Sequence record: PP261279.1 | Length of the DNA: 64,000 bases | Source: Escherichia phage ECP2303 | Direction: 5' to 3' (one strand) | In this document: piece by piece, positions 2,537-48,403 of the stretch | Position numbering within the stretch: the stretch's first letter is position 1 | How the letters are laid out: the number at the start of each line of letters is the position of its first letter | The notes under the pieces: model-generated | The model's input: the letters and a program-made list of their open reading frames with translations, nothing else | What the model was told of the DNA's origin: nothing | Databases searched by the model: none | Program-made: the position numbers and the translations under genes

Positions 2537-2585
2537 AATAACTCCAAATAGAAAATCCCCGCCGAAGCGGGGGAGGTCTTAGAAA

Positions 2586-2966
2586 TTAATCGTAGTGTGC
2601 CAAAATCTCTCCATCGTTGCAAGTTCCCTCTACAAAGTTATGAAGATTCATGCACTCATCTTGATAGAAGAATTTACCGCTTTTCAGCCGTAAGCCAAAC
2701 AACTCCGCATCTCCACGATGGCAAGCCTCTACAAGTTCATAGATTTCATACGGCAACTCTCCGTCGTCATGGAAGAACCCAGCCTTATCGTTGACATAGA
2801 TGAAGAAATAATCACTGCTGTCGCAAGCGTCCAATATTTTAAACCAGATTTCATCTACATCTTTTTCTCGGATATCGATCACGCAAGTGGAGCTGCATTC
2901 GTACTCCTTCTCCGGCTCCTCGGTCAATACCACCAGGTAGTTTCCCCGCTTACCTACTTTAGCCAT
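2586..2966 (-). CDS. Hypothetical protein (126 aa)
   Basis: ORF co-oriented with its neighbours and followed on the minus strand by a UUCG-tetraloop terminator at 2557-2574. Confidence 0.55.
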   Translation of the reverse strand: MAKVGKRGNYLVVLTEEPEKEYECSSTCVIDIREKDVDEIWFKILDACDSSDYFFIYVNDKAGFFHDDGELPYEIYELVEACHRGDAELFGLRLKSGKFFYQDECMNLHNFVEGTCNDGEILAHYD

Positions 2967-2975
2967 ACAACCTCC

Positions 2976-4160
2976 TTAAGCTTTAGCCAAAATGGCGCTA
3001 AACTCTTCACCAAACTCTTTTACAATCTTCATCAGGTTTGGGTATGCTTTGATCAGCTGAGCAACGATCTTGTCACGACCTTTACCGATAAGCAAGGCAT
3101 TTCCTAAGGCATTAGGTTTCATCATCGCCATAAAGACTGAAAATACAAAATCTCGGTTCTCGTCCTTGAAGTTTTCCCAAAGGAAATCGAGAAAGTTTGC
3201 CACACAGCTAACAAGATCTTCGTCGGAGATACTTGCATTTTCCATCATATTACGAATAGCGATGCAACCTTCAGATCCAAGAATCCACAAGATGTCTGGC
3301 TGTTTAGGACCTACGTATTCTTTGCAACCTCCTGCCATAATCCGACCGATTTCCGGTAAGTTGCGTTTCTTGGTGTGGTAAGTCCAGATCTCTACCGCTG
3401 CAGTGTGACCAATAGCACCTTGCAGAAGAACACGGGCCATAGCGTCAGAAATAATACCGCTGTCAAAATCGTGCAAGATATCAGATGCAGCAACCCAAGA
3501 TCGCGGTGTGGCAAAAGATGGACAATTAATCTCAGCCATGGCCTCATAATTATCGATAGCTGATGGAACTCTTTTCAGATATCCAATTACAGAGGAGTGC
3601 ACCCCATTAAGGAATGCGTAGTCCTCAATAAACACCTCTGCATTGCTTGTAACCTCTACAATGATAAAACGGTTAGCCAGAGGGGCTTCGAGCGCCGAAA
3701 GAACCGCACCATCTGTAGAACGGTTACCAGCAGCCACAAAAACAGACCCCTTAGGGAATGCATAAGTACCGCACTTGTGGTCAAGCATAATTTGCATTGC
3801 AACCTTTTGTAGGTAGTTATCTGCATGAGTGAGCTCATCCAGAAAGATAATTCCGCTCCAGTCAGGATCCGCAGGCCAAAATTCTGGAATTGCAAACACT
3901 GTACGTGTAGTTCCATCCGCTTCTACAGGGATAGGTAGCCCAGATAAGTCGGCAGGATCTTTATCTGACAGCCGCACGTCAACAAGGTTGTCATCTCGCT
4001 CACCGAACATATTATCAGCGATCTGCTTCATCACCTGGCTTTTACCTACACCCATTGGTCCCAAAATTAGGACAGATCGGCTATGACGTTGGGCAAACTG
4101 AATAATAGCTGGCAACTCACGGACAGTGATTTGACCACTTTCGAATACGTTTCTTGACAT
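2976..4160 (-). CDS. MoxR-like AAA+ ATPase
   Basis: 394 aa. Walker A LILGPMGVGKSQ and Walker B IIFLDELTHA in a single AAA domain followed by a C-terminal extension, which is the MoxR/AAA_5 architecture. Confidence 0.8.
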   Translation of the reverse strand: MSRNVFESGQITVRELPAIIQFAQRHSRSVLILGPMGVGKSQVMKQIADNMFGERDDNLVDVRLSDKDPADLSGLPIPVEADGTTRTVFAIPEFWPADPDWSGIIFLDELTHADNYLQKVAMQIMLDHKCGTYAFPKGSVFVAAGNRSTDGAVLSALEAPLANRFIIVEVTSNAEVFIEDYAFLNGVHSSVIGYLKRVPSAIDNYEAMAEINCPSFATPRSWVAASDILHDFDSGIISDAMARVLLQGAIGHTAAVEIWTYHTKKRNLPEIGRIMAGGCKEYVGPKQPDILWILGSEGCIAIRNMMENASISDEDLVSCVANFLDFLWENFKDENRDFVFSVFMAMMKPNALGNALLIGKGRDKIVAQLIKAYPNLMKIVKEFGEEFSAILAKA

Positions 4161-4429
4161 TAGTAAAAGTCCTCTACTTGTGTGTAAGTGTTTTCAAAGT
4201 TTTCCAAAACAGATATCACATCGGATCTGTCAATATCATACGTGACTCTCCAGTTGTACGCAACCCTTTCTGCTGTTGCCTCTTCTGGCGCTAGTCGTCT
4301 GCTGGCATAAAAGAGTGTTGGAGTACACTTTCTTGCTTGCCCTCTAACTTTCCCATAATAATATCTGTGAATATCTTTGTCAAAATTTAACTCTTTTTCT
4401 GCACGAAGTTCATATTGCTGGTATAACAT
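4160..4429 (-). CDS. Hypothetical protein (89 aa)
   Basis: Tightly packed, co-oriented ORF whose stop overlaps the next start. Confidence 0.45.
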   Translation of the reverse strand: MLYQQYELRAEKELNFDKDIHRYYYGKVRGQARKCTPTLFYASRRLAPEEATAERVAYNWRVTYDIDRSDVISVLENFENTYTQVEDFY

Positions 4430-4473
4430 CTCTACTACTCCTTAAGCAGCATCCTTGCCGCCATTCCTGCCCA

Positions 4474-4854
4474 CTAAAATGCAGTCCGAATCCAGACAAG
4501 GTTCTTATCTGCCCAATCATAGAGGCAAGTCATTGCACTATTGAATTGCTCACACGGAGGATAATCTTCTTCCATCTGACGCATAGCAGAGCCTTGTGGG
4601 TAAAGCTCCCGTGCTGCAAACCACGCGTCGTAGTCATCAACGGTGTCGAAGTAGTATACAACATCCTCCAACTCAGGATCGAACTTTGAACTATCAGGAT
4701 CCAGTTGTTCAGGGAACTTGGAGCGTAACTTGCCAGCCACAATACTTGCCAACTCGCTAACATGCTTATTGTCCCACTCCATTAGCTTCCCGTCTTCAGT
4801 GATGCGTCCTAACCACTGATCATGAAGGTCAACTGTTGTCTTCCACCGGGCCAT
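4474..4854 (-). CDS. Hypothetical acidic protein (126 aa)
   Basis: Co-oriented ORF in the early operon; no motif recognised. Confidence 0.5.
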   Translation of the reverse strand: MARWKTTVDLHDQWLGRITEDGKLMEWDNKHVSELASIVAGKLRSKFPEQLDPDSSKFDPELEDVVYYFDTVDDYDAWFAARELYPQGSAMRQMEEDYPPCEQFNSAMTCLYDWADKNLVWIRTAF

Positions 4855-4856
4855 TA

Positions 4857-5114
4857 TCAGTCCACCTCTTCTTCTCGTTGTAGTTCAAGATACCCGTAGG
4901 TCTGGACATCTTCAAGGGTGTGGAACTCCCCATCTGCCGCTAATGCACGAACAACTTGGCACAAAACCTTATGAGGAACTTCATCCAGACCAAGATTCAG
5001 TGCAGGGAACACCTTATCTAAGTCAACAAAATAAATGAACTGTAGCTCACCAGCTTCAAAAGGTGTATCTTCAATAAACATCTTCTCGGCATTAGTCAAG
5101 ATCTGCACTTTCAT
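4857..5114 (-). CDS. Hypothetical protein (85 aa)
   Basis: Co-oriented ORF separated from its neighbours by 0-3 nt. Confidence 0.45.
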   Translation of the reverse strand: MKVQILTNAEKMFIEDTPFEAGELQFIYFVDLDKVFPALNLGLDEVPHKVLCQVVRALAADGEFHTLEDVQTYGYLELQREEEVD

Positions 5115-5491
5115 TATTCTACCTCCTCTTCTTTTTCTTCGGCATTAGTTTCATGGCTACCCCACTCTGGAGTTTCCACCTCGATAGTAAACTCACGCAC
5201 TACACGGTAATTGCCCATGAAGCGCTCCACTTCGTCAAGGCTTATGGAGAGGCCATTGGCAACCAGGTCTGCAGCACCCTCTTCTACCAGGTAGTCCAGA
5301 TTGGCTTCCAGAGCTTCAGGTTCAAACCCTGTCAATGCAATCAGATAACCTTTCCCTTCATCAGGGAGGACAATACATCCCAACTGATTTTCTTTAAAAA
5401 GGCAGTGACCATCATTATTGATTGGGTGTTCATTGCAGTAAATAGCTGCACGATAAGTAACTTTAGACATCGGCAAGGTCTCCTTAGGCAA
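5114..5491 (-). CDS. Hypothetical protein (125 aa) with acidic C-terminus
   Basis: Co-oriented ORF; stop/start overlap with its neighbour. Confidence 0.5.
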   Translation of the reverse strand: MPKETLPMSKVTYRAAIYCNEHPINNDGHCLFKENQLGCIVLPDEGKGYLIALTGFEPEALEANLDYLVEEGAADLVANGLSISLDEVERFMGNYRVVREFTIEVETPEWGSHETNAEEKEEEVE

Positions 5492-13485: not shown

Positions 13486-13520
13486 AAAAAGAAAGGGGCC
13501 GTTTGGCCCCTTTTTATTTA
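13486..13520. terminator. Bidirectional intrinsic terminator between the convergent early (+) and late (-) operons
   Basis: GGGGCCGTTTGGCCCC hairpin (13495-13510) flanked by an A-tract upstream and a T-tract downstream, so it is functional in both orientations. Confidence 0.7.
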
Positions 13521-16500: not shown

Positions 16501-19164
16501 AGTTTGGTTAAACCACAAATTACAAGAGTAATCCCTCATATAGTCATAATCAGAGTATTTGTTTACATCTTCGTTCCAACACATGTTTAGGTTGGTACCG
16601 CCCATGCATACAATATATTCTGCGACATACTTATCACTTCTGGTAGGAATACCTATGAACCATCTGTTAACAGGCTCATCCCAAGCTGTGCGCTCATCTT
16701 TAACGCAGATAGCAATCCAGTCATGTGTTCCTGTTTTCTTGCACACATCTCGCTTCATACCATAGTAGAACTCTTTAGTATTCGGCTCAGGTGCATTTAT
16801 CAGGTAACTCCATGCCTGATTTGCATAAGTTCCATTGGTGCGTGGATCATGATCAAAGGCATACATGATGATCCTTTCCCCACCAAGATGTTCGCCAAGA
16901 GTAACTTTGACATTCACATCGCCGTAACCATTGCGAACAACATCCATATTGTCAATAGAGATGCCTCTGGGAGTGTAGGCAATCTTCAGCGAGTTATCCT
17001 CACTAGTGCCACCAAGTGTAATCCCTATGTTGTTTGTTGTCCCGTCGGCATATCTTACTGTGGCTTCCCAGCGTATTCCGAAATATCCTGCATCATGGCT
17101 AACAATTTTCAGTGTACGAGCACCAGAGTTAGGTTTTCCAGGATCAGGCCAAGGATTTGGATGTTCATGGACAGTCAACGATGTCCCGTTTTGCTCGTTG
17201 ACCTGCAACATTTTACCGCCTCTGCCGTTAGGGTTGAACTCCCACAAGGCTTGTGTTTTCACAATATTGTCATACGTGGTACGTCTCTGATCGTAGATCT
17301 CCTGAGTCACATCGTAGGTTACAGACCCGGCATCCATTCTATGGAGTCGTACTATATACGATGTATCGCCTTCTACAGCAGGTTGAGCTGCGTTAAGCCC
17401 GAAGTATACAGTATCGTTGACATGGAACTGTTTGTTTCTACCGACAGTATGCCACTTGCCGTTGGACGGGTACGCTGGGACGATAGTGTTCCAGTTCAAA
17501 GTCCTTGTTGTGTGGGTTCTGCCTGTGCCATGTTTGTCATGATAGGTTATTTTTACAGAGTACAGTCCACGTCTGTTAACATTTCTGTTATATTGGGTAA
17601 CAACAACTTCGTTGGCCCCGCCGTGGTTCCAGTTGGTGGAGAATTGGTAATTTGCATCTGTAACAACCGTGCCTGCAGCATTTACCAGTTCAATCTTGTC
17701 AATAATGAACGTAGCCCCCTCTGGCTGAGGCTTCAATTTCATCTTGACCGTGTCACCAATGTAAATATTGCTAACGCTGCTAACACCGTTAACTTCGAAA
17801 ATATCATCAACACCCCAACTGTCTACTGGGACATTTTTATACCAATTCTCAGGAACCTCTGTGAACCCCTGGCTATTAAGTCTGCCGCCAAACAGGTTGT
17901 TAGATCCTGCAAAACTTCCCCTTGGGATGCCTGACCACCAAAGTTTACCATTAACAACAGTAAAGGTTCCTAAGAAACCTTCTCTGTGGATGCCTTGGAA
18001 ATAAACACTCTCTGTCCAGCTAACTGGCAGGCGTTGCTCAACATATTTAGCTGTAGCAAGAGCTTGATAGTGGATAAAATTAGCCCTAGGGCTATTGTTT
18101 GCAGATTGTGCACCAATATCATTACACAAGTTGCGAGAGAATCCACGATACTGTTTAGTGCCATTATTGAAGAAAATGCCACTTGTGCCATATCCACGAG
18201 CCATTATCACCTCATGGGTGTAGGTGATATTTAAGGAACGCCATGTGTCATCTCCCCAGACGTCTTGCCCGTAGAATACGTTAACAAGCTGCTGGTCATT
18301 GGGTTTGTGCATCCTCTGTGTGGCAATTATTGCCCCGTTAGGGCCACACATAAACCCTTTCCACTCCTCATCTGCAGGAATGCCCCTCAAATCGTTACGA
18401 GTAATCTGCACAGGGGGCCAAACAAGGTCGTTTCTACTGTTATTTCTCAGAAAGTCGTATCCAGCAATCCAGAAACCCCTAGGACCACCGAAAATAACAG
18501 AATTGTCATGCACCTCGCAGTTGATGCTTGGGTTTTTCCAAGGTCCTGTTTCAGGATTTTCCGATGTCTCACCAATCTTCACAGGGGTTGCATGCTGATT
18601 TTTATCTACATGTAAAGATCCGTAGGTGTTGTTACCAGATCCATACAGGTTAAGTATGCCAGTACCTTCTGCCTCTGCAATAACCCAGACAGTGTTGTTA
18701 ATACCGCCCATCACCTCAATAAGGCGTTCTGGGTGGGTGTCAAGGTGCAATCCTTTAACAATCTGCTCTGGGAGTGGTGTCCACTCGTTTACGCAAACAT
18801 CATTACCGCCTGCAGCAGTGGATCCGATAAGACCTGCAGTGCAGCCGATGTAGAAAAACTGGTTATCAAAAGTCCGGATCACAAACGCGCGGTCTGCTCT
18901 CCACACATGATCAACATTCCAGGCTGTTTCGCTCGGATAGTTTATAGGGCTACGATCCCCAGTGCGGCACTCTCCGAACTTGTTATAGCCGGTAATATTA
19001 AGCTGACCATCATCAAAAAGTATAGCTAAGCTATTTACATAGGATACTGTGTTGCTTGTACCATCACTGTTGTCTATTGGGTATGACAGAACAGCAAGTT
19101 CCTTAATTCCACCCCTCTTATCGAGGAAATGACGACCAAGTTTTAGCAAAGGGATTGGAAGCAT
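13528..19164 (-). CDS. Giant virion-associated protein (1878 aa), fibre/adhesin-like, with a C-terminal Ig-like domain
   Basis: Single uninterrupted ORF at the end of the late fibre block. Gly/Asn/Thr-rich beta-type composition and a Big_2-like Ig motif near the C-terminus (NIATVDATTGLVTFKATGNVTIKFVVTDDAG). Confidence 0.75.
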   Translation of the reverse strand: MLPIPLLKLGRHFLDKRGGIKELAVLSYPIDNSDGTSNTVSYVNSLAILFDDGQLNITGYNKFGECRTGDRSPINYPSETAWNVDHVWRADRAFVIRTFDNQFFYIGCTAGLIGSTAAGGNDVCVNEWTPLPEQIVKGLHLDTHPERLIEVMGGINNTVWVIAEAEGTGILNLYGSGNNTYGSLHVDKNQHATPVKIGETSENPETGPWKNPSINCEVHDNSVIFGGPRGFWIAGYDFLRNNSRNDLVWPPVQITRNDLRGIPADEEWKGFMCGPNGAIIATQRMHKPNDQQLVNVFYGQDVWGDDTWRSLNITYTHEVIMARGYGTSGIFFNNGTKQYRGFSRNLCNDIGAQSANNSPRANFIHYQALATAKYVEQRLPVSWTESVYFQGIHREGFLGTFTVVNGKLWWSGIPRGSFAGSNNLFGGRLNSQGFTEVPENWYKNVPVDSWGVDDIFEVNGVSSVSNIYIGDTVKMKLKPQPEGATFIIDKIELVNAAGTVVTDANYQFSTNWNHGGANEVVVTQYNRNVNRRGLYSVKITYHDKHGTGRTHTTRTLNWNTIVPAYPSNGKWHTVGRNKQFHVNDTVYFGLNAAQPAVEGDTSYIVRLHRMDAGSVTYDVTQEIYDQRRTTYDNIVKTQALWEFNPNGRGGKMLQVNEQNGTSLTVHEHPNPWPDPGKPNSGARTLKIVSHDAGYFGIRWEATVRYADGTTNNIGITLGGTSEDNSLKIAYTPRGISIDNMDVVRNGYGDVNVKVTLGEHLGGERIIMYAFDHDPRTNGTYANQAWSYLINAPEPNTKEFYYGMKRDVCKKTGTHDWIAICVKDERTAWDEPVNRWFIGIPTRSDKYVAEYIVCMGGTNLNMCWNEDVNKYSDYDYMRDYSCNLWFNQTTGYPPRQARVNPAIFTDTQVFLTKQANEVQTFKNKYDPNKWFYNCYGAFFWGPGELPGGGSCLNEATYASDYIMGQVKKYKIIPGPETLGNAVDPYIIMTALRSNMDGTSMSMQIPVTNGYKRVVMIIKCDLIGKQVLAENGTSTHPFEVALHYQFADSPFAGDKRISDTDAQRCKKVLLGAGWWWYEFDLTDKFTDTSRVVTGLRLDLGENMHKAVCDGTYGDPTIYLKYISFEHPEDVVYGPKLRLFGSWIAKDRVGMGKKVRGFLVDAGTEDMLVNAVWPELPGTQWNNSAKSINWFNIHRAMWTTNCYLWRELNDQAFGFSNGRRMAIICWTTLQRCYDHDYEIGGRAWKNIRDRIITNFADDNGGGAHNFGTSRLIHLNGSSAYKKEGYSGSMIEWGLVKDARVLMGQQLAAAIGPSAVQSVKPAWFDIPIWSSGTPGTAAINPTTGDLEISWEDLKQVGGWDKTGYQVQWWRADGSLAADEFVKDNFYTMSSAKAQQLFGQATPSTITMSMCCKDNRTGALGPRVAKVFSGIKWNLPVQSVSWKQIGDNKLLVTPACQFNATLNVDPAVAANSAKASDFSVSNTAMADVRKIDTLNARITCKNTYGTFQIINNFTDADSKVVRTASQTLSLGTLAYAALITEQSATLQGGGVGKSITTPVWKPNEWVVFDLTVDFSSDNNWTWVRNCLSQLMGGPSSVSDSHDSTDPSVFQVGKTHPETGETLPDRKYALVCISYGKADVTFSGTHTYNGTYNFSRKYSLKAGNIIDEVGALYNPGNGIGIVGGKLQMQEPSITPSNVSGIRKTWESSNTNIATVDATTGLVTFKATGNVTIKFVVTDDAGRKTSSTSFTVKQMAPQWRMWIGTATNGAYPNPAGTSGMKTFSTSKPMEYGSGPKVGQMVYFGAYIPEIIGLPRSQLQLLFGAGVDDLATFGYSDNIEAARSSGWVGFRMESGREGRILGTASIGVMFPGDQQYRLEAYATFSR

Positions 19165-26429: not shown

Positions 26430-27115
26430 TAACCCTCCTGTCTAGTTGCGTTTACTGTAATACTTTCACAATAAATGGTTGTGGTGTCCCAATCAGGTCT
26501 TACGTCAGGAACATACAGCAAAGTAGCCAGCCCACCAACTCCGAATTGGTTTTCTTCCCACACTGATCCGAAGCCAAGAGCTGTATGGTCCCCTTCAAAA
26601 CCAAAAGCTTGCCCTTGCGATTCTGTAAGACGCAAATGACAAGGCAATGGTAGCATGTCTAAGATCTGATCGATAGACTGCAATATGTCAAAGCAAGTTT
26701 TTCTAATATTTATGTCAAATCTGAAGTTGTCTCCTTTCCACGTATCGAAATTGTCCCTTCCGAACAATTGTCGCAAGGTGGAGATGACATCTTCGCGAGT
26801 CCCACCCCTTGATGCTGCGGCCTGCTGAATAATCAGCGTGGCACGAAAATCAGCATCTGAAAGTCCATTCCTAAGAATACCAAGTTGATTACCAACTTCG
26901 TCAAGGTATCTTCCGCTAGCATTGTTAAGCAATCTTCCTTCAGCCAAACCTACCAGCATCTTATCAACATCCTCCAACCTTTTAAGGTACACGGTTAAGA
27001 ATGTGACCAAATTAACCTTCTCAGCCAGAAAATCTCCAGGCAGGTAGTCAAGACCTCCCTGAACAAAATCTGGCAGAGTGTGGATGTGGTTAACATCCGA
27101 CTTAATCTCTGCCAT
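26429..27115 (-). CDS. Baseplate-associated protein (P2 gpI-position equivalent)
   Basis: Immediately downstream of the baseplate J-like gene with a stop/start overlap; function assigned from gene order only. Confidence 0.45.
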   Translation of the reverse strand: MAEIKSDVNHIHTLPDFVQGGLDYLPGDFLAEKVNLVTFLTVYLKRLEDVDKMLVGLAEGRLLNNASGRYLDEVGNQLGILRNGLSDADFRATLIIQQAAASRGGTREDVISTLRQLFGRDNFDTWKGDNFRFDINIRKTCFDILQSIDQILDMLPLPCHLRLTESQGQAFGFEGDHTALGFGSVWEENQFGVGGLATLLYVPDVRPDWDTTTIYCESITVNATRQEG

Positions 27116-27126
27116 ATCTCGCCGCC

Positions 27127-28617: not shown

Positions 28618-28697
28618 GTCACTCCTCCGGTATGAAAATCTCTACAAGGTATTTTACCAAATTTTGTAACAATAGTCAATCTGAGCATAAAAATAAA

Positions 28698-28713
28698 CCC
28701 CGCCGAAGCGGGG
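28698..28713 (-). terminator. Intrinsic terminator (UUCG tetraloop hairpin + U-tract) downstream of the J-like gene
   Basis: Minus strand reads AGCCCCGC-UUCG-GCGGGGUU followed by UAUUUUUAU. Confidence 0.7.
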
Positions 28714-28722
28714 CTTTAAAGG

Positions 28723-31700: not shown

Positions 31701-32562
31701 TTGCCGGACCATAATATGCACCTACCAGCAGTCCATACTTACCAGCTACATAGCTGAGATCTGCACCACAAGCTTTCAGCATTTCTGCCATAATACTTGC
31801 TGGGGCCTCATCCATATCGAACTCGCCATTAATGGTGTAACGGCGCTCACTAGTTCCGTCCGCGTTTCTTACCGCCTCATCGCATATGTTAGCAGCCTCC
31901 TTGAAGGACTCCCAGTTGATGGTTTCGTCAGGACATTTAAGGTACGTTCTTAAATAGTCTAGAATCACCAAGGCCGCGTTATTGGTATACACCTCTTTAC
32001 TGATACGAGGATCATAGCATTTTTTACCAACCTTGACGAGTGTAACGTTTGGCAACCCAAAAGGGAACTTGTTAGGGTCAAACCTGAAGCTGGCACGTAG
32101 CCAACTGATCCCTCTACCTATCATGTCTGGTGACCACGACGGGCAGTGTGTACCCATGAAAGGATCAGATGTTTTTCTGTCGTTATGTAGCTCCCACGAT
32201 ATCAAATCTCCATACGAGGAAATAGGATTACCGTCGATGAGTATATCTTCTATACCTTCCAGGGGATGATTGGCAAGAACAATAGCACAATGGAGGGTCC
32301 TGTCCCTGTCCTGCTCCAAAAACGCAAGTAATCCAGATGTGCGTGTCTTCCCATACACTACAGAGCAAGGTGCAGCAGAAGATCTGAGAAGCTTTTGTCT
32401 ATCTTGCTGACTTCTGTAAGATTTGTTGCCCTCAAAAATCTTATCCAGAGTTCTGGTGGTAACAGTGTTCAGGCTGTCAGCCAGAGCTGCCTTGGATGCG
32501 TTCCAGTCATAACTTGAAGATCTTGCAGAAGCAACGATGTTATCAATCATTGCAATTGGCAT
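28723..32562 (-). CDS. Lambda gpJ-like host-specificity / central tail fibre protein with internal coiled-coil repeats
   Basis: 1279 aa. Segments align with lambda J as recalled from memory: EFNIQAPEAPVSVEVKQGYFAITLIPHS, YYWYIRTTNAFGSSQFVECAARC, and a C-terminal NASSGNFTGAVNATSGTFRGDV region. An insert of four approximately 50-aa repeats (TNKATTDLLN...) lies between them. Confidence 0.75.
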   Translation of the reverse strand: MPIAMIDNIVASARSSSYDWNASKAALADSLNTVTTRTLDKIFEGNKSYRSQQDRQKLLRSSAAPCSVVYGKTRTSGLLAFLEQDRDRTLHCAIVLANHPLEGIEDILIDGNPISSYGDLISWELHNDRKTSDPFMGTHCPSWSPDMIGRGISWLRASFRFDPNKFPFGLPNVTLVKVGKKCYDPRISKEVYTNNAALVILDYLRTYLKCPDETINWESFKEAANICDEAVRNADGTSERRYTINGEFDMDEAPASIMAEMLKACGADLSYVAGKYGLLVGAYYGPATMTLSEDCVCGEVKIYPEASFDKRSNTITGRFTSPTKGYSETDFPSVFVPEWIEKDGERKIIDIDYRFVTSPYQAQRVSAIFLRRARAGRIIEVTCNMRGFKFKPGRYVTMNLPSIGIVGQEMRVLEWEFTKKGGVKVKLRQDAKEWNDATGQLPDSGDVDIPISPSGVAQPQNFRYSVLQAGEVTHGVLAWDNVGTYAQNIVQVRKNGEIVWTAQTVEQFVRVEGLTKGSYTATVVATSYKGGVSPEAYCEFNIQAPEAPVSVEVKQGYFAITLIPHSRDLASVSTQYDFWTSGMTRLPDTSDATVTSEATRMGVGSTWTSEGLQNDKVYYWYIRTTNAFGSSQFVECAARCYTSIEDLMPQIDAEFKKTETYKELMSTLDSSIEEVENRVTELNRYMDGRVDEAFQQLGDRIGAVVTETTQKFEDVNGNITALDRKLVAAQNKFTNDLNTESGRLASLIETTNKATTDLLNKKTEALDEKLVAAKGELVEQIEGVESGYLAGDKTLDGKINTQRTELDASILSTNQATVDLLNRTSETLDQKISQTNATVSKNYTTLDGKITTAKTDLNTLIANTNKATTDLLNQKTSALSEQITSARGEISTNKQAIDALDGKLTSTKTALDATISDTNKATVDLINGTASAIRQELAVAKQEIIDDVGDVSEIRAAVATTSKAVTDLEGKVNAQWGTKIQVDSAGNKYVAGIQLGMEGSGGQVQSYFMVSANNFAVYNPGNGTATLAFAIKNNQAFLKDAFIENGTISSAKIAQEISSNNYDGNGYHKYGWYINKNGHAQFMDVWVKGNINASSGNFTGAVNATSGTFRGDVYANNGSFRGTIDATGGTFRGRVEASVIRANQFEGAIVAHRTYGDCPPVYNSQQRVCRWRWRYVDNVSGQGKNVTFFFKLNGTLSGSQLNVWIAGHQILAGKKYGNDNNGMCAVGITGLGEQTIDIVVEIYTPWSTSSVTGVAISCPTVVVSRSNSSFQGPWNESHD

Positions 32563-32999
32563 TAATACCTCCAGACATCAACAACAATAGAATCTTTCAT
32601 GTCGAACATAAAGACCCCTTTATCACCTTTCGCCCAAATCTGGTTGTTCCAGAACACACCCGCGGTGAGTCCGTTCAGTCCTTCGAAAATAACAATATCC
32701 CCACGCTGAACCTGTTTAGGAGTGTCCAGTCGAGTCATAAAGAAATCAAAAATAGTAGGCAGGTGTGTGGTTTTGAAATGAAGCATGCACCATCTCTTGC
32801 TTTCCAACTCTGTTTTATACGTTCCTTCGAAGTTAGAAAGAAAATCTGTTCCGTATTGGGCATCAACACACTTAGCCGCAAAGGTGCAACAATCGTGGAA
32901 TCCCCATTCAAAAGGTATGGTGGCCTCTTCGTCAAACACTTTCCACAACCTTTCTTGCCAGTCCACTAGACGAGGATGTGTGCTCATTAAACCTCCCAA
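32562..32999 (-). CDS. Hypothetical tail protein (145 aa) with HDCC motif
   Basis: Directly upstream of the J-like gene with a stop/start overlap. HDCCTF motif may indicate a Cys-peptidase-like fold (speculative). Confidence 0.45.
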   Translation of the reverse strand: MGGLMSTHPRLVDWQERLWKVFDEEATIPFEWGFHDCCTFAAKCVDAQYGTDFLSNFEGTYKTELESKRWCMLHFKTTHLPTIFDFFMTRLDTPKQVQRGDIVIFEGLNGLTAGVFWNNQIWAKGDKGVFMFDMKDSIVVDVWRY

Positions 33000-33553
33000 A
33001 TGATCGGGCGGCTCGCCACCTGATCCACATATTTAAAAAATCTGTCGTTATCGTTTCTTGAGCTGTGGCTTTCCTCCGTGTACCGATAAGGAAAACCTCT
33101 TAACCAGCTGTTGAAGATGGAAGAGATGGATATGGACAAAGCACTATTCTCTCCTGTCTGGATAGCCATATCTGTTATAAGGCCGTCAAACAAGCCATTA
33201 GTTGTGACAGGCAGACCATTCTCCATAGCGGTAATGTACAACGTGGCACGACAACCAGAATACTCCGTCTTCAGCAGATCACCCACATACTTAGGATCAA
33301 ACCCGTTCAATGTTGCTACCACAGATCCGAAGTTGGTGGCATCTTTCTCAGACACAGCGGTCAATGTTGCTGATCCGCCTATCCCTATAAAATGTTGACC
33401 CTCAATTACTACAACACCAGTGCCTGAGCACACCCTGACAGTGCCTGTCGGTAGCTCCAGCTTTGCAGCAATTAAGATCTCAACACCATCAAGCTCTAGC
33501 TTTTCAAGAAATAAATTATCTAATGGCGCTCTGATCATCTTAGAAATCCTCAA
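32987..33553 (-). CDS. Hypothetical tail protein (188 aa)
   Basis: Co-oriented, overlapping-start ORF in the tail-tip module. Confidence 0.45.
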   Translation of the reverse strand: MRISKMIRAPLDNLFLEKLELDGVEILIAAKLELPTGTVRVCSGTGVVVIEGQHFIGIGGSATLTAVSEKDATNFGSVVATLNGFDPKYVGDLLKTEYSGCRATLYITAMENGLPVTTNGLFDGLITDMAIQTGENSALSISISSIFNSWLRGFPYRYTEESHSSRNDNDRFFKYVDQVASRPIIWEV

Positions 33554-34130
33554 AGAAGTTGATAACTATATTATCACCTTTTTGCATAGCATCGACTTTT
33601 TGCTTAATTTTATAAATATCTCTGATATGGAACCTACCCTTCGGGGATTGAGTTATTATCTTCATAGTGTCCCCTGCGGCAATAGGTTTTCTAAGTCTTG
33701 GAGATATGCTTATAACAGCAGACCCAACACCATCACTACGCACTGGAGCTGTTACCACTTTCAATTCATCATTGACAGATATTTTATCCCCAGCTCTGGC
33801 TATGTCTCTGTTTGGCTCCCATCCGACCGTATTCAAAAAATCGTCGTTGCCAGTAGGCCCAAGGGCGATTGGCTCATTAGCTGTTACTGAGTGACCGTAA
33901 GTTTTAATGAGAAAGATGTTCCCATCTTTATACACCTGATCAACAAAGCTTTTAAGCTCTAGCAACTGTGACTCGCTGATATTGGAGACCGTCAAAGTGC
34001 CTTTCCAGTTAGGTGTGGCATAGGTTACTTTTTGCGTCTTACCTGTAAACGGACTTTTAAACGTAACAATATCTGCCAGCAGCTCCAATCTAATATCTGG
34101 AAGGTATCTAGGCCTTTCCCATAAAAACAT
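33540..34130 (-). CDS. Hypothetical tail protein (196 aa)
   Basis: Co-oriented ORF in the tail-tip module. Confidence 0.45.
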   Translation of the reverse strand: MFLWERPRYLPDIRLELLADIVTFKSPFTGKTQKVTYATPNWKGTLTVSNISESQLLELKSFVDQVYKDGNIFLIKTYGHSVTANEPIALGPTGNDDFLNTVGWEPNRDIARAGDKISVNDELKVVTAPVRSDGVGSAVISISPRLRKPIAAGDTMKIITQSPKGRFHIRDIYKIKQKVDAMQKGDNIVINFFEDF

Positions 34131-34202
34131 TGTGCCTCCAGGTTAAACAATCATGATAGTTATTTTACCAGATTTTGAGTTAATACGCAATACAAACAAA
34201 AA

Positions 34203-34222
34203 GCCCCCGCCGAAGCGAGGGC
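34203..34222 (-). terminator. Intrinsic terminator (UUCG tetraloop) downstream of the 1266-aa fibre gene
   Basis: Minus strand reads GCCCUCGC-UUCG-GCGGGGGC followed by UUUUUGUUUG. Confidence 0.65.
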
Positions 34223-34229
34223 AAAACAG

Positions 34230-37200
34230 TTACTTCAATTTCTCTTGCAATCCAGTAACAACCTCTGTCAATTTTTTAACCTGCTCCTCAAGGGCGGTTA
34301 TTTTATCGTCCTGTTCCCTGCAAACCTGGACAAGCAAGCCTGTTACAGCTGCGTAGTCAACGTTATAGAACCTTTCCTCAGTCATTAAAGGAATGCCGTC
34401 TTGAGTAGGACCTTCTATTTCCTTCCTTTTCACGAAAGATCCTACTGCCTCTGGCAATGCTTCCATAACCTCTTGAGCAATCACGCCTGCATAAGGCATA
34501 CCATTCTCTTTCAAGGTGTAGGTATAGCCTTTCATCTTTCTAATTGCTTCCAGAGCGTTAGGTATGACCTCTATGTTATCCTTCAGGTCCCTATCGGAAC
34601 TTTGACTAACAGTAGTACATTCTACCGTGCCGTTGACAGCAAAATATCTTGATTTAGCCTCATCTGCCTTAGCACCACAGTGGAATACCCAGCTGGCGAC
34701 TGTTGAGTTATCACTTATCTGAAACTCCAGCACATTCTTCCTATCTGCGCCATTACCCCAATAGTACAACCTACCTGTATTAGAAGGCATGTTGGAAGTG
34801 TTGGTAACATCCGCACCACCACCTGTGTGTATTGTGAACTCCGGTTCAAGATTGGATCCTTGAGTTTTTAAAGTGATACCTTTACCACCAAGCTGCTGCC
34901 AATGGCCCCATGTGAAAACACCACCTATCGTTGTTCCATAACGCAGGAATTTTTCTCCAAGATATGTCGTATATTCCTGTACGCAACTCTCTGGAACGTT
35001 GGCATAGTTTCTGTAGACAACGAGAGTACCTGCCTGGGAGCATGGGTAGTTTTTATCAAGTGCGGCCTGAGCATTAGCCTCCTGATGATAAAAACCCTCT
35101 CTATCCCCTTTGTAGTCGTTAAGGTCATTAGTCCCCAGCCCTTGACCACGGTGCTGAATAACTTTGTTCCATGCCCTATGGTTACCACCCTCGATAGATC
35201 TGGTGTATAGCTGATCAAGGCGACCAGCCATTTGGAAGGCATAGTTTCCAGAAAACGCCACAGACAGCCCACCAACAACCATCGAACCTTCAGGTCCGTT
35301 GACATTGCCTGCCATTATTTTAGAAGGGTTGTTAGGACCAAACTGGTTGTTCCAGTCTGCACCAGTATGGCATACAAAACCACCTGGAGCTGAGAAAGTA
35401 CCATCCTTGTTGAAGTTGTAGAATCTATGAGCTGTGCCTACAACATCGCGAACAATAACTTGACCAGCTTCCGGAGTAGATCTGAACTCTGCCTGGCCTT
35501 TGAGACCAGCACCATTACCGCATTTAGAGGTAAACGTACCGTTAGTCAGATCCTCTGTCCCATCAGATGCACACTGGAATCCTGCATTAGAGAATAACGC
35601 CTTTCTAGGACTGCCGTAGCACAAATAGTCAAGACCGTCTGCCCATAGCTCGACTTTTGGCATATTCATTTTGCTCATCACAGCATAGCGTTCAGCAGTG
35701 CCTATATAGTGCCACTGTGTGCCGCCGCCAGTGTAGAACCCTGAAGTACCTTTAAAATCAACAATAGGTCTGGTATTGGTGTTGTTATCTCCAAGAATGG
35801 CAAGATTCAAATCTGCTGACTGAAGAGGTGCAACGAACTTAACCCCATCCTGATTGTCTGTTACAGAGCCAACCTGGTAATCTTGCTCTCTGGTAAACAC
35901 TTCGACAACATTTCTACTTGCGTATATGCTGACAGGGAAAGCACGAGCCTCTACATAGAAAGCAACATACTCTTGTTTACCCCTTGTTGGAGCAACCATC
36001 CCAAGAAGTGCTTTTTCATTCTGGTAGAAATTTACTACCCCGTAGAAAGCGTCCCCTCTGTCTGTCCAACCACCAGTTCTATAGTGACACTGTAAGGTAG
36101 CACAGTTCATAGGGTCACCGCCGGATGACGATCTGGTAACTATGGTAATATCAGTGCCAGTTGCTGGAGCATAGTACGGATCTGTTCTAACGATAATTGG
36201 GTAGTATTTCCCATCTTCCATCCCTGCGGTTCTTGGCAGTGTTAAGAAGTCTTTTACACCTGCTGCTATAGGAACTTTGAACAGATTCTGAGCATCTGCT
36301 AAAGTTGTGGCTCCAGTACCACCTGCGGCGTGAGGTAAAGGTTCCCACTTGGCCTTCCGGTTGTTATAAACACCCCATTCCAAACTGCCGTTACCGGATT
36401 CGTCCATCCCGCCATCCCAGATAACCATCTTGGCGGCTTTCTTGGACCCCCAAAAGCCTCTTTCTGCTCCTGAACTACGGATCCACTCCCCAAGTCCCCA
36501 GTTTGTCAGCTGACCAGTAAGATCCCCAACCTGCATATATTTAGGACAGTCTAATACACCGTCCTCGCGGAAACCTAAATATCTATGAGTTTCAGATCCT
36601 TTTGCACCTTTGTGGAGGTGGATTGTCAACCAAGCCTTATTGTCGTTTCTTACCTCAGAATAGATCCTATAACCATGCTCAAGAATACCATCAGTATTAT
36701 ATTTATCTCCATGGAGAATACCTGAGGCCGATTTAACATCTCCAGAGTATTGAGCTAAGTAAAGGTGCCCGAAGGCTGGCGAGTTGTTTTTACCAAGGCC
36801 GATATGAGATCTGAAAGTATCATCGTTACGAGGTCTGACCATCGGCTGCCATGCAGTCCACTGGTTTGTGTTGGCCTGATAGGTTCTCAAATACCAAACA
36901 TCTACGTTAGAAAATGGATAGTATTCCTGACGACAACCTGTACCGCCGTTAGCATTGTTCTGCCAAACAATCAAGTGACCAGCACCAGAACCTGCAGGGT
37001 AACCATTTGCCTCAGTTGCATAAGCAGTCATCGGCTGGTAGTATACGCCATCCTGATTACCAGTCAAGTTATTGATATTGAAATTTGGCTCAAGGGCTGC
37101 ACGTTGCTTATAGAAAGCACCGATATTGATACGGACTCCAGCGGCATCTCTAGCCCCTGTGCCGCCTTGCTCTATAGCAAGAGGTTGCCACGAAGCTGTT

Positions 37201-38030
37201 TGTTGGTTCCACATACCCCAACGGCCTGTTGCATCAAGCTGCAAGTACCCTGCCGTATTTAAATCATCTCCAGCACGGATAACTGTTCTTGTTGGGTTGT
37301 TTGCCTCTAGGCGTTTAAATTCATCACGAAGTGCTATTCTTTTCGTTGTTGCTACACCGTTGGTTACTGCAATGGTGTACATGGCTCCGGTGGTAGCGCC
37401 ACGGAAAATACCATCAACAGTTGTAGTATCACGACGAGATACCACACCGTTCAGAAATTTTTCACCAGCTGCTACAGAAGGGTAGTTGGTAGTTCTTCCC
37501 TCTTCAATAACTGCAGGGCCAACAAAGTTATCGAGGTGAATAACATCGCCTACAGTGTGCACTGTACCAAAATCTACACGCTGTGCAAGTGCTTTGGCAT
37601 CGTTAGCTGTCTGAACAGTAACATCCATTACATCCTGGACAGACTGCCCTTCGGCTGTCATGATCATAGATGCGCCAATGGTAGATTCCAGCTCCTCCCT
37701 TAATGACGGATCTGTATATACCATCCATGCAGCGTCAGTAATCCCACCATCGGAGTACGGTGAAGACAGTGCAGGAACAGTGTGTGGAAATTCGCCTTTC
37801 CAACGTAGGTAGAGGTCTTCCTCTTCGAAGTAGGCAAAATCCATTGGGCCGTTTAACTTACCACCTTCCTTAAAGGAGATTACATGAGAAACAGTCCCAT
37901 CAACATGGACAACATCGCCAATTTTTACACGACGGGTCAGGTCTGGTTGTTGAACAACCAGGTAATCATCCTCTGTCACTGCGGTAGTGGCAGGAAGAGA
38001 TTCAATTCTGACAACTTTAATATCAGCCAT
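34230..38030 (-). CDS. Tail fibre / tailspike with C-terminal intramolecular chaperone (peptidase S74) domain
   Basis: 1266 aa. C-terminus (SDRDLKDNIEVIPNALEAIRKMKGYTYTLKE...GVIAQEVMEALPEAV...YNVDYAAVTGLLVQ...ALEEQVKKL) matches the self-cleaving chaperone domain of endosialidase-type fibres. N-terminal domain is shared with the 222-aa ORF at 40665. Confidence 0.8.
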   Translation of the reverse strand: MADIKVVRIESLPATTAVTEDDYLVVQQPDLTRRVKIGDVVHVDGTVSHVISFKEGGKLNGPMDFAYFEEEDLYLRWKGEFPHTVPALSSPYSDGGITDAAWMVYTDPSLREELESTIGASMIMTAEGQSVQDVMDVTVQTANDAKALAQRVDFGTVHTVGDVIHLDNFVGPAVIEEGRTTNYPSVAAGEKFLNGVVSRRDTTTVDGIFRGATTGAMYTIAVTNGVATTKRIALRDEFKRLEANNPTRTVIRAGDDLNTAGYLQLDATGRWGMWNQQTASWQPLAIEQGGTGARDAAGVRINIGAFYKQRAALEPNFNINNLTGNQDGVYYQPMTAYATEANGYPAGSGAGHLIVWQNNANGGTGCRQEYYPFSNVDVWYLRTYQANTNQWTAWQPMVRPRNDDTFRSHIGLGKNNSPAFGHLYLAQYSGDVKSASGILHGDKYNTDGILEHGYRIYSEVRNDNKAWLTIHLHKGAKGSETHRYLGFREDGVLDCPKYMQVGDLTGQLTNWGLGEWIRSSGAERGFWGSKKAAKMVIWDGGMDESGNGSLEWGVYNNRKAKWEPLPHAAGGTGATTLADAQNLFKVPIAAGVKDFLTLPRTAGMEDGKYYPIIVRTDPYYAPATGTDITIVTRSSSGGDPMNCATLQCHYRTGGWTDRGDAFYGVVNFYQNEKALLGMVAPTRGKQEYVAFYVEARAFPVSIYASRNVVEVFTREQDYQVGSVTDNQDGVKFVAPLQSADLNLAILGDNNTNTRPIVDFKGTSGFYTGGGTQWHYIGTAERYAVMSKMNMPKVELWADGLDYLCYGSPRKALFSNAGFQCASDGTEDLTNGTFTSKCGNGAGLKGQAEFRSTPEAGQVIVRDVVGTAHRFYNFNKDGTFSAPGGFVCHTGADWNNQFGPNNPSKIMAGNVNGPEGSMVVGGLSVAFSGNYAFQMAGRLDQLYTRSIEGGNHRAWNKVIQHRGQGLGTNDLNDYKGDREGFYHQEANAQAALDKNYPCSQAGTLVVYRNYANVPESCVQEYTTYLGEKFLRYGTTIGGVFTWGHWQQLGGKGITLKTQGSNLEPEFTIHTGGGADVTNTSNMPSNTGRLYYWGNGADRKNVLEFQISDNSTVASWVFHCGAKADEAKSRYFAVNGTVECTTVSQSSDRDLKDNIEVIPNALEAIRKMKGYTYTLKENGMPYAGVIAQEVMEALPEAVGSFVKRKEIEGPTQDGIPLMTEERFYNVDYAAVTGLLVQVCREQDDKITALEEQVKKLTEVVTGLQEKLK

Positions 38031-47470: not shown

Positions 47471-47488
47471 GCTTTCCTCATAATAAAA

Positions 47489-47520
47489 AGGGCCAGATCC
47501 CAGAAAAGGAATCCGGCCCT
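47489..47520 (-). terminator. Hairpin + U-tract (possible attenuator) between the chaperone ORFs and the tape-measure gene
   Basis: Imperfect 9-bp stem (GGGCCGGAU / AUCUGGCCC) followed by UUUUUAUUAUG on the minus strand. Confidence 0.4.
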
Positions 47521-47524
47521 TAGA

Positions 47525-47773
47525 TTATCCTCTCCTGCGCTTAGCTTTCGCAGCAGCTGCGGCAGCCTTCTGCTCCCGCTCCATTTCCCTGTTTTGGACG
47601 GTATCTAGGAATTCTTCGATATCAAGATACTCACAGAGCTTCAGGAAATACGCCATATCTGCAAGATTTAGCGATTCAAAATTTTCCCCTTTGAAATTCT
47701 TGAGCACCCTGCACCAAAGAAAGTCGAACCAGTTAAGTGAACTGTTCTTAGCTGCCCACTCACTGGCCCTCAC
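47525..47773 (-). CDS. Second tail-chaperone ORF (possible -1 frameshift extension of upstream chaperone)
   Basis: 82-aa ORF in the -1 frame relative to 47785-48258, starting (GTG) 12 nt after its stop. Its frame stays open well upstream of the chaperone stop. Confidence 0.4.
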   Translation of the reverse strand: MRASEWAAKNSSLNWFDFLWCRVLKNFKGENFESLNLADMAYFLKLCEYLDIEEFLDTVQNREMEREQKAAAAAAKAKRRRG

Positions 47774-47784
47774 AACAACCTTGC

Positions 47785-48258
47785 TTATTCCTGCTCTTCC
47801 GGAGTCTGATCCAGATTGTTCACCTGCTGGATCATACCCATCTGCTGTAACATCTCCAGAAGGCTTCCTAAACCGTCTTGTGTGAAAAAACAGCCGTAGT
47901 TAACCTCCAGAACCTTACCTGCCAGCTTAATCATCTCCAGCAGATGCCCTGCAAACACAACATCAGGGTTAAGCTTATCCACACCATCCACGGTAATATC
48001 TTCGAACAAGATTTTAAATAACTCTTCAATAGAGTTATCATCAAGTTCTTGGAACAGGTAAGCTAGGGCTGTAGGAAGGACCTCTGCCATATTCTGACCG
48101 CCTGAGAGAATAGATCCACCGATAGCACCTAGCGGGACAGCCACAATCTTACCGATTTTAGGCATGTTTTTCATTGCTTTCATCGGTCCCCAGTGGGTGA
48201 TCACAAAGTTGTGCCCTGCTAAATCAATCTCTGTTGTAGGTCTAAAGTTTATAGCCAT
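47785..48258 (-). CDS. Tail assembly chaperone (gpG-like position)
   Basis: 157-aa acidic protein between the tube and tape-measure genes. Confidence 0.5.
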   Translation of the reverse strand: MAINFRPTTEIDLAGHNFVITHWGPMKAMKNMPKIGKIVAVPLGAIGGSILSGGQNMAEVLPTALAYLFQELDDNSIEELFKILFEDITVDGVDKLNPDVVFAGHLLEMIKLAGKVLEVNYGCFFTQDGLGSLLEMLQQMGMIQQVNNLDQTPEEQE

Positions 48259-48382
48259 TTTATAGCATCCTTATTAGTCATGTTGTGCACCATATTTGTG
48301 TATTTTACCATGATTACGGTGCATTGTCAATTTAACCTTTCAAGCAACTCAAGAACGTGTGTCAAAACCATAAAAGCAAAAA

Positions 48383-48403
48383 GCCCCACCCGAAGGTGAG
48401 GCC
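48383..48403 (-). terminator. Intrinsic terminator (UUCG tetraloop) downstream of the tube gene
   Basis: Minus strand reads GGCCUCACC-UUCG-GGUGGGGCU followed by UUUUGCUUUUAU. Confidence 0.6.

Follow-up and report, generated by a model that had tools for sequence, protein, structure and literature searches.

Four UUCG hairpins and the genes around them

The DNA analysed here (the window) is a stretch of 64,000 nucleotides from Escherichia phage ECP2303 (PP261279.1). It corresponds to the late (structural) arm of the genome of an E. coli phage of the rV5 type (Vequintavirus) that is near-identical to phage ECP2309. Four hairpins with a UUCG loop lie in this arm, each just after a minus-strand gene, and three of them are followed by a predicted promoter. 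The features are listed below, with hairpin sequences given as RNA of the minus strand, read directly from the window.

2546..2572, minus strand: T1, predicted intrinsic terminator; hairpin CCCCGC-UUCG-GCGGGG (2572 to 2557), then the interrupted U-tract AUUUUCUAUUU (2546-2556)
28651..28679, minus strand: promoter P036, directly 3' of T2; TTGACT-17-TAAAAT with late motif TGGTAAAATA; listed for rV5 in Table S4
28687..28716, minus strand: T2, predicted intrinsic terminator; hairpin AAGCCCCGC-UUCG-GCGGGGUUU (28716 to 28695), then AUUUUUAU
34161..34190, minus strand: late promoter P040, directly 3' of T3; TTGCGT-17-TAAAAT, with TGGTAAAATA at 34161-34170
34193..34222, minus strand: T3, predicted intrinsic terminator; hairpin GCCCUCGC-UUCG-GCGGGGGC (34222 to 34203), then UUUUUGUUUG
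48302..48330, minus strand: promoter P051, 3' of T4; TTGACA-17-TAAAAT, with TGGTAAAATA at 48301-48310
48371..48404, minus strand: T4, predicted intrinsic terminator; hairpin AGGCCUCACC-UUCG-GGUGGGGCUU (48404 to 48381), then UUUGCUUUUA

The distance from stop codon to hairpin is short throughout (6-16 nt). T1 begins 13 nt 3' of the stop codon of the gene at 2586-2966, at a site flanked by gene 003 (hypothetical, 126 aa) and a gene for a SleB-type endolysin. T2 and T3 follow two lateral tail fibre genes, gp037 (28723-32562) and gp041 (34230-38030), at distances of 6 and 7 nt respectively, and T4 lies 16 nt beyond the tail-tube gene (48421-48894). Transcription is predicted to resume shortly after three of these sites: beyond T2, T3 and T4 there is in each case a promoter bearing TGGTAAAATA within about 35-75 nt. 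P036 is predicted to drive the baseplate wedge gene (27127-28617), P040 gene 040 (33540-34130) and P051 the tail assembly chaperone gene (47785-48258). T1 is separated from the endolysin start codon by 20 nt, and there is no promoter in this gap.

All four elements have the anatomy of an intrinsic terminator, namely a G+C-rich stem-loop and a U-rich tract placed after a gene on its sense strand. The stems of T1, T2, T3 and T4 comprise 6, 9, 8 and 10 pairs, of which 6-7 are G-C, and the 4-nt loop is closed as C-UUCG-G in every case, as in tetraloops of the UNCG class. For the U-tracts, the best 8-nt frame at the 3' end of the stem contains 5-7 U, and at least five of the first 8 nt after the stem are U. 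Energy evaluation of the stem-loops alone gave -12.0 to -16.4 kcal/mol, predicted folds recovered all four hairpins (with a z-score of -4.5 for T4), and a simple terminator scan placed all of them among its top-ranked sites. The first-pass annotation had described four near-identical UUCG hairpins with a U-tract. Indeed, all four exist and T1-T3 are near-identical, T3 having a single mismatch to the 16-mer of T1 and T2 that turns one pair into a U.G wobble. The stem of T4, however, is different, and what it has in common with the others is limited to CUUCGG and a G-rich 3' arm.

Most of these hairpins are ordinary, already known elements that were predicted before for rV5. The terminator table of that phage lists t003, t041 and t052, which are T1, T3 and T4 (Kropinski et al, 2013, Virol J 10:76, Table S4; PMC3606486); they are identical or nearly identical in sequence and occupy the same gene junctions, at coordinates 25-67 nt below those in the window. 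Two further UUCG terminators are among the 20 listed, and the same paper describes the late motif TggTAaAAtA, including its occurrence at P036, P040 and P051, but leaves the repeated use of the UUCG loop without remark (PMC3606486). T2, after gp037, is absent from the table even though P036 downstream of it is listed, so that T2 may be an addition to the terminator annotation of Vequintavirus. In the record of phage Alma, T2 and T3 appear as 'Terminator_10' and 'Terminator_09', and terminator features are annotated in a 2-kb stretch around T4 in phage Murica and around T1 in phage HdK5. An Rfam scan of the window gave no match at the hairpins, the gathering threshold being reached by the tRNAs at 60.7-61.5 kb only, and a search of the literature found no Vequintavirus transcriptome or transcript 3'-end data.

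Recurrence and conservation of the loop

The recurrence of these hairpins far exceeds chance. The window holds two exact copies of the 16-mer CCCCGCCGAAGCGGGG and a third copy with one mismatch, compared with 0.09 expected occurrences. When hairpins were counted by structure, as C(UUCG)G on a stem of five or more pairs followed by a T-rich tail, the window contained four, against a mean of 0.037 and a maximum of 1 in 300 dinucleotide-preserving shuffles. The plain pattern SSSSCGAASSSS, in contrast to this structure-aware count, was not significantly enriched in the window (2 matches; 0.33 expected). Across the whole genome (136.9 kb), UUCG hairpins that precede a T-rich tail number six, and all lie on the transcribed strand of their own arm. 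UUCG is also the commonest tetraloop among the terminator-like hairpins of the genome (5 of 25; binomial P of about 4e-8), accounting for some 20-25% of tetraloop terminators here and for a higher share in related genera; in four of these it is likewise the commonest.

This design has precedents. Tuerk and colleagues reportedly found C(UUCG)G hairpins in intercistronic regions of phage T4, and d'Aubenton Carafa and colleagues are said to have found the same tetraloops in E. coli terminators. The window hairpins resemble these in having a C-G-closed UUCG on a G+C-rich stem, a U-tract, and an intergenic position on the sense strand, and in the over-representation of the loop among terminator loops; we see no essential difference beyond their occurrence in another phage lineage. 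A passage of PMC3972237, citing Tuerk (1988) and d'Aubenton Carafa (1990), likewise names UUCG and GAAA as tetraloops used in rho-independent terminators.

Comparison with relatives indicates that the hairpins are maintained. Genomes with 92-98% identity in the surrounding sequence carry them unaltered, and T1 is identical in rV5, FV3, YP-6 and JohannBauhin (Bas53). The T2 16-mer is intact in a sister lineage in which the protein of the neighbouring gene is 80% identical; the -35 element and TGGTAAAATA of P036 are also kept there, and the sequence upstream of T2 is unrelated. Relatives were also collected from IMG/VR, where a search with one protein gave 3 loci and a six-genus profile 38. At the T2 position a hairpin is kept across the genera of Vequintavirinae, about 75-115 nt upstream of the baseplate wedge gene in ten distinct lineages, with a loop that is often UUCG or UCCG. 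The stems at this site are quite different (they include GCCCCGC, GGGGC, CCCGC, CCACCC, GGGACCC and GAGGCCC), yet the loop-closing C-G pair is invariant in all ten lineages. Six of the eight pairs have changed on both sides and 96% of the cells are paired, a percentage that is partly circular because the hairpins were picked for their pairing. T4, by contrast, is genus-specific, the same site in other genera having a weaker hairpin or a GAAA-loop terminator. Since a relative that is 99% identical has UUAG at T2 and UCCG at T3, the UUCG loop is not strictly required. The UUAG variant occurs naturally in IMGVR_UViG_3300010279_000001.

The same sequence is also widespread outside this group. In IMG/VR, CCYCGCUUCGGCGGGG was found at no fewer than 124 sites among the first 120 matching stretches, in sequences of 33-68% G+C with unrelated flanks, and the U.G-wobble form of T3 was among them. 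A T-tract lay on the UUCG strand at 100 of the 124 listed sites (81%), compared with 29 on the opposite strand. For the same stem with other loops, the corresponding numbers on the loop strand and the opposite strand were 45 and 65 for AUCA and 69 and 39 for GAAA; as all three scans count listed matches only, they can be compared in the orientation of the T-tract but not in loop abundance.

Probable transcription termination and a possible role in mRNA stability

These results make it very probable that T1-T4 are Rho-independent terminators of late transcription units, and that they recur as a selected stable design and not as a copied cassette. The terminator assignment made from the window alone thus holds as a prediction, given the anatomy of the hairpins, their position and strand, their conservation and the earlier predictions for rV5. 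Selection for one particular stable tetraloop, also put forward at that stage, is supported by the prevalence of UUCG here and in four related genera, and by the persistence of a hairpin at the T2 site with changed stems. We infer termination, and its efficiency, from these features. In the model we envisage, host RNA polymerase would transcribe the minus strand, the emerging RNA would fold into a G+C-rich stem with a very stable C(UUCG)G cap, and the U-rich tract just 3' of the stem would then release the transcript. T2, T3 and T4 would close units that end in abundant or large virion proteins (the two lateral fibres and the tail tube), and the TGGTAAAATA late promoter after each would allow transcription to restart. 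The bearing on basic biology is small: the findings add a further phage group to those with the textbook design of terminator, and support the map of transcription units proposed for rV5.

T1 is the weak point for the terminator reading, with a stem of 6 pairs and the tail AUUUUCUAUUU. Since no promoter lies between T1 and the endolysin gene, a complete stop at T1 would silence the endolysin and rIIA genes. T1, which combines the shortest stem with a broken U-tract and leaves too little space for a promoter ahead of the endolysin start codon, is probably a leaky attenuator. The T1 hairpin might also protect the 3' end of the upstream mRNA.

In an alternative reading, the hairpins would act mainly after transcription, as a block to 3' exonucleases or a processing mark that sets mRNA half-life, with termination playing a minor part. 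C(UUCG)G hairpins have exceptional stability; the example cited in a passage of PMC3972237 is a block to reverse transcription on a phage T4 mRNA. Moreover, expression of the endolysin needs read-through of T1. A pure stability element, however, needs no U-rich tail, whereas one is present on all four hairpins and at 81% of the listed sites elsewhere, and the promoters directly after T2-T4 make sense if transcription halts there. We therefore think it unlikely that stability is the main role. The two functions are in any case compatible.

Fibre modules and the origin of the repeat

It had also been suggested that the shared hairpin sequence might act as a recombination hotspot between fibre modules. 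We compared the flanks across related phages, and some module boundaries do coincide with hairpins. In about one third of some 120 Vequintavirus records, homology to the window ends at 34227, the 5' edge of T3; these records have another fibre tip upstream and an extra gene of 110 aa, for which no Pfam match was found. In alignment A2, homology begins at 'UU GCCCUCGC' of T3. Similarly, the sister lineage is divergent up to the 5' edge of T2 and homologous from there. As the hairpin is widespread enough in phages to offer microhomology, conserved hairpins might serve as anchors or hotspots for the exchange of receptor-binding (fibre) modules between phages.

Several observations argue against this. 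Because the hairpin follows the stop codon after only 6-7 nt at T2 and T3, any swap of a whole gene end must finish there, whatever its mechanism, and the position of the junction is thus set by layout. In a second class of alleles the break falls 430 nt within the fibre gene, away from T3, and hardly any record of the genus shows a break at T1 or T2. The sole break near T4 is an insertion in phage JEP1, where an extra gene lies in the spacer between T4 and the next promoter and not at the hairpin. No external source of the alternative fibre-tip and chaperone module at T3, with the same hairpin alongside, was found; the search returned only DNA matches of 70-74% inside siphovirus fibre genes, and none for the small gene or the 3' flank. 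In addition, sixteen to twenty bases are short for homologous recombination. Finally, T2 and T3 are direct repeats, so that a crossover between them would delete essential genes, and the relatives compared gave no indication of exchange between the two. What stands of the hotspot proposal is the coincidence of boundaries, with T3 within the genus and with T2 between genera; nothing beyond coincidence emerged, and we consider a hotspot quite improbable.

In a broader version, hairpins such as CCYCGC-UUCG-GCGGGG would act as universal 'landing pads' of microhomology, setting where horizontally acquired receptor-binding modules end on their downstream side. They could in principle serve in this way, since they are common to very many unrelated phages, and this would account for the onset of fibre-tip divergence precisely at T3 in Vequintavirus and, in comparisons between genera, at T2; we nevertheless rate it as highly improbable. 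Mosaic phage genomes are reportedly built of modules or 'morons' with definable boundaries, as discussed by Hendrix and colleagues. The present case is similar in that variable genes abut conserved intergenic signals (fibre-tip alleles at T3, the JEP1 gene after T4), but differs in that the terminators belong to the conserved backbone and are not carried with the inserted gene. The practical value is modest. Insertions are naturally tolerated in the spacers between terminator and promoter, such as that after T4, and the 5' edges of T2 and T3 offer natural boundaries for engineered fibre (host-range) module swaps.

It had also been proposed that the repeat spread by recombination, which would make T1-T3 copies of one ancestral cassette, perhaps a terminator with its late promoter, duplicated within the genome. 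T1 and T2 share the exact 16-mer, from which T3 differs by one base, and the sequences downstream of T2 and T3 align with a score of 30, compared with a shuffle mean of 14 and reached in none of 2000 shuffles. This match, CAAAAT(U/C)UGGUAAAAUA, contains just the late promoter motif, which also marks late promoters placed after other terminators or after no terminator at all. Beyond hairpin, U-tract and this motif the flanks are dissimilar, so that homology does not extend past the functional core, and the fibre proteins encoded upstream of T2 and T3 are unrelated (E = 0.71). Moreover, the 16-mer serves as a terminator at 100 or more of the sites in unrelated viral contigs, including the T3-type wobble form, and the T3 core also occurs downstream of the tape measure gene in phage nieznany, which belongs to a different subfamily. 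Indeed, nearly all-G-C stems leave few alternatives, so that recurrence of identical stems is expected. Spread of a cassette is thus not supported, given the unrelated flanks, the unrelated fibre genes and the commonplace nature of the 16-mer, and is very unlikely; we attribute the recurrence to a UUCG terminator design that is common in phages.

A duplicated gene end, with gp037 and gp041 as paralogues, was considered as a source of T2 and T3 and is ruled out, the two proteins being unrelated. Finally, T1-T4 resemble REP/BIME and other dispersed intergenic repeats in being short G+C-rich palindromes that recur between genes. They differ, however, in that their flanks have nothing in common, they are not clustered, and outside a generic stem they carry no family-specific sequence; their U-tract and strand bias fit terminators instead.

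Four UUCG-loop hairpins and their setting

In a megablast search, positions 26000-36000 of the window matched 122 phage records, all rV5-like (genus Vequintavirus), and Escherichia phage ECP2309 was 100% identical over this stretch. The window corresponds to about positions 32,460-96,460 of the ECP2309 record, with small differences in 3 of 16 4-kb blocks, and genome-wide counts were made on the whole ECP2309 genome (136.9 kb). Within the span of the hairpins, nearly every gene is a late, structural one encoded by the minus strand. Read directly from the sequence, the four hairpins claimed in the first-pass annotation are all present where it had placed them; the genes before T2-T4 are named from the fuller annotation of a relative, JohannBauhin (Bas53):

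T1, 2557-2572, minus strand: UUCG-loop hairpin flanked by a small hypothetical gene and a SleB-type endolysin gene
T2, 28695-28716, minus strand: UUCG-loop hairpin after a lateral tail fibre gene (28723-32562, gp037)
T3, 34203-34222, minus strand: UUCG-loop hairpin after another lateral tail fibre gene (34230-38030, gp041)
T4, 48381-48404, minus strand: UUCG-loop hairpin after the tail tube gene

Their description as near-identical holds for T1 and T2, which have exactly the same 16-mer (CCCCGCUUCGGCGGGG), and for T3, in which a single base change replaces a C-G pair by U.G, but not for T4, whose stem (GGCCUCACC/GGUGGGGCU) is longer and unlike the others. The 16-mer occurs three times in the window at up to 3 mismatches, against 0.09 expected, and there are four C(UUCG)G hairpins with at least 5 pairs and a T-rich tail, compared with 0.037 in dinucleotide-preserving shuffles. 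Folding recovered the expected stem-loops, which in isolation have energies of -12.0 to -16.4 kcal/mol. All four hairpins begin 6-16 nt after a stop codon, and at the 3' end of the stem the best 8-nt frame contains 5-7 U. A genome-wide motif search, as the annotation had proposed, found six UUCG hairpins with a T-rich tail, all on the transcribed strand (four minus in the minus-transcribed arm and two plus in the plus-transcribed arm). UUCG is the commonest loop among terminator-like hairpins with 4-nt loops (5/25; binomial P ~4e-8 against a composition-based expectation of 0.4% per loop).

These hairpins are already known elements. The rV5 genome paper (Kropinski et al, 2013; PMC3606486) predicted 20 Rho-independent terminators, and its Table S4 lists T1, T3 and T4, with the same sequences, as t003, t041 and t052, together with t109 and t122, two more terminators that have a UUCG loop, in the opposite arm. 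T2 is absent from the table, in which P036, the promoter directly after it, is present. Public records carry 'terminator' features at T2 and T3 (phage Alma), in the 2-kb stretch around T4 (Murica) and in that around T1 (HdK5).

Predicted termination and late promoters

Stems with U-rich tails after stop codons, the rV5 predictions and the features in public records all support the reading of the hairpins as terminators, with ordinary intrinsic termination by the host RNA polymerase as the best-supported mechanism. A UUCG cap makes hairpin formation faster and the hairpin more stable; the capped RNA hairpin would form and the polymerase would terminate at the predicted sites T1-T4. PMC3972237, citing Tuerk (1988) and d'Aubenton Carafa (1990), gives UUCG and GAAA as tetraloops used in rho-independent terminators, and a review describes a chimeric riboswitch, built on a terminator, that was improved by adding a UUCG loop to that terminator. 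The literature searched gave no transcript-end data for the genus Vequintavirus.

The late-promoter motif TggTAaAAtA, described in the 2013 rV5 paper, is found 35-75 nt downstream of T2, T3 and T4, which puts these three hairpins at terminator-then-promoter junctions between late units:

28650-28659: late-promoter motif after T2 (P036)
34161-34170: late-promoter motif after T3 (P040)
48301-48310: late-promoter motif after T4 (P051)

T2-T4 would thus divide late units, each restarted from its own late promoter, and separate restarts would allow fibres, tube, chaperones and baseplate proteins to be expressed at different levels. The weakest hairpin is T1, 20 nt ahead of the endolysin start codon with just a ribosome-binding site between. 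It is probably leaky, so that some transcripts continue into the endolysin and rIIA genes. A likely second role of the hairpins is to protect mRNA 3' ends.

At 57993-58040 (minus strand) the order is opposite to that at T2-T4: a motif resembling the late promoter, TGGTAGAATA (58031-58040; rV5 P064), lies upstream of a terminator-like hairpin (57993-58014; rV5 t064), which would stand at the very start of transcripts made from this motif. A bidirectional terminator at 13490-13515 (GGGGCC-AAAC/GUUU-GGCCCC; rV5 t026/t027), with U-tracts on both strands, sits where a plus-strand gene block and the late arm converge.

Copied cassette or convergent design

The first-pass annotation offered two origins for the repeated hairpin, spread of a cassette by recombination and selection for one stable tetraloop. 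Aligned over about 80 nt on each side, the four sites showed no similarity beyond the hairpin, U-tract and promoter motif. The downstream stretches of T2 and T3 do align above shuffled controls; their common part, CAAAAUNUGGUAAAAUA, amounts to the late promoter extended slightly upstream, and its core recurs in other late promoters. The fibre proteins encoded before T2 and T3 showed no relationship (E = 0.71). Furthermore, CCYCGCUUCGGCGGGG occurs at at least 124 sites in at least 120 IMG/VR stretches, with unrelated flanks and a contig G+C of 33-68%. Among the sites listed, at least 94 have the C-G form and at least 30 the T3-like U.G form, and a T-tract lies 3' on the UUCG strand at 100 of 124, versus 29 on the opposite strand. 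The T3 core also follows the tape measure gene of phage nieznany (another subfamily), and the structural arms of Seunavirus, Henunavirus, phage A5-4 and Phapecoctavirus have UUCG loops at a frequency no lower than here.

At the T2-orthologous position, a terminator-like hairpin was present in 22 of 23 loci, in relatives down to 50% protein identity, 75-115 nt ahead of the baseplate wedge gene. The stems differ (GCCCCGC, GGGGC, CCCGC, CCACCC, GGGACCC, GGGAGCC, GGCCAGCU and GAGGCCC among others), and the loops vary too, with UUCG (on four of the stems), UCCG, UUAG, GCAA, AUAA and UCU among them. In an alignment of ten different versions with a tetraloop, 96% of cells are paired and 6/8 pairs differ on both sides, the loop-closing C-G being invariant; since the hairpins were chosen for pairing, the informative result is stem turnover at a fixed position.

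Taken together, the flanks, fibre proteins, IMG/VR matches, stem turnover and UUCG frequency in relatives lead us to favour convergence over a copied cassette, and indicate that the hairpin is a generic solution, selected repeatedly. Selection for a stable tetraloop is thus supported, and spread of a cassette is not. Identical stems are expected to recur because they consist almost only of G-C pairs. Nor are repeated terminator sequences peculiar to the UUCG set, since rV5 t213 and t232 have a common stem and form a near-identical pair:

ECP2309 record 16745-16766 and 26902-26927, outside the window: GAAA-loop terminators GCCCUGCCC-GAAA-GGGUGGGGC

Apart from A/G at the outermost T4 pair, T1-T4 are the same in rV5, FV3, YP-6 and JohannBauhin, where the surrounding DNA is 92-98% identical. 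In a sister lineage, with protein identity down to 80%, the T2 16-mer is kept along with the -35 box and TGGTAAAATA, the intervening spacer and all upstream sequence having diverged. The UUCG loop is not inviolable: a metagenomic relative with 99% identity shows UUAG at T2 and UCCG at T3, and the terminator that follows the tape measure gene has UCUG in FV3 versus UCCG in rV5. T4 is specific to the genus: of the other Vequintavirinae, the three lineages compared (Seunavirus, Henunavirus and phage A5-4) have a shorter spacer at this site and a weaker hairpin with no clear U-tract, and nieznany has a GAAA-loop terminator there.

In two unrelated viral contigs from IMG/VR, the CCCCGCUUCGGCGGGG hairpin recurs within about 1 kb with no T-tract, three times (L082, 10360-11384) and twice (L129, 8290-8980). 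These copies may represent another type of repeat using the same hairpin.

Hairpins and the edges of fibre modules

The annotation also suggested that the shared sequence could act as a recombination hotspot between fibre modules. We compared 2-kb queries centred on each hairpin with about 120 Vequintavirus records, counting a region as contiguous when one place in the record matched 80% or more of the query. T1, T2 and T4 were mostly contiguous (113/120, 114/117 and 111/135), whereas the T3 query reached this coverage in just 26/120. The T3 breaks reflect alternative fibre alleles:

34227-34660: 3' end of the lateral fibre gene before T3, which has three or more allele classes in the genus
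Class 1: full-length, like the window
Class 2: match ends 430 nt inside the gene, the last ~143 codons alone in common
Class 3, about 1/3 of records: match ends at 34227, the 5' edge of the hairpin
L016 7030-11798 and L017 7029-8512 (sequences from other records): alternative fibre-tip stretches

In class 3 (e.g. EmilHeitz and Alma), the terminator is adjoined by a longer fibre whose tip differs and by an extra 110-aa gene, which had no Pfam match, and homology to the window begins at 'UU GCCCUCGC'; this module was found in 36 records. Variable receptor-binding modules thus do have their downstream edge at T3 and, between genera, at T2. However, gene layout accounts for this coincidence, since just 6-7 nt separate stop codon and hairpin and any replacement of the 3' end of the fibre gene must stop there. 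Moreover, no donor of the alternative module carrying the same hairpin was found, the records compared gave no sign of exchange between T2 and T3, and in phage JEP1 (L416 1834-3456; about window 48335-48360) an extra 540-aa gene lies between T4 and P051, not at the hairpin. A hotspot is therefore hypothetical, and of low probability.

The JEP1 gene has its own promoter-like sequence and ribosome site, and its sole Pfam match is a sub-threshold DUF4379. Eighteen 'Campylobacter phage' entries (MG0656xx; host Campylobacter jejuni) resemble E. coli rV5-like phages over the tail region, those listed being mostly ~95% identical, which looks like mislabelling or contamination. In OY979426.1 (Klebsiella phage vB_Kpl_K54lambda1.1.1; L012), the annotation is shifted out of register against the sequence, so that the baseplate wedge homologue falls under features named thymidylate synthase and 'unknown function'. 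Finally, a cluster of seven tRNA genes lies at window 60716-61527 (minus strand), one of which is a 99-nt call (60960-61058) with a putative four-base anticodon and an Rfam tRNA match of 35.5 bits.
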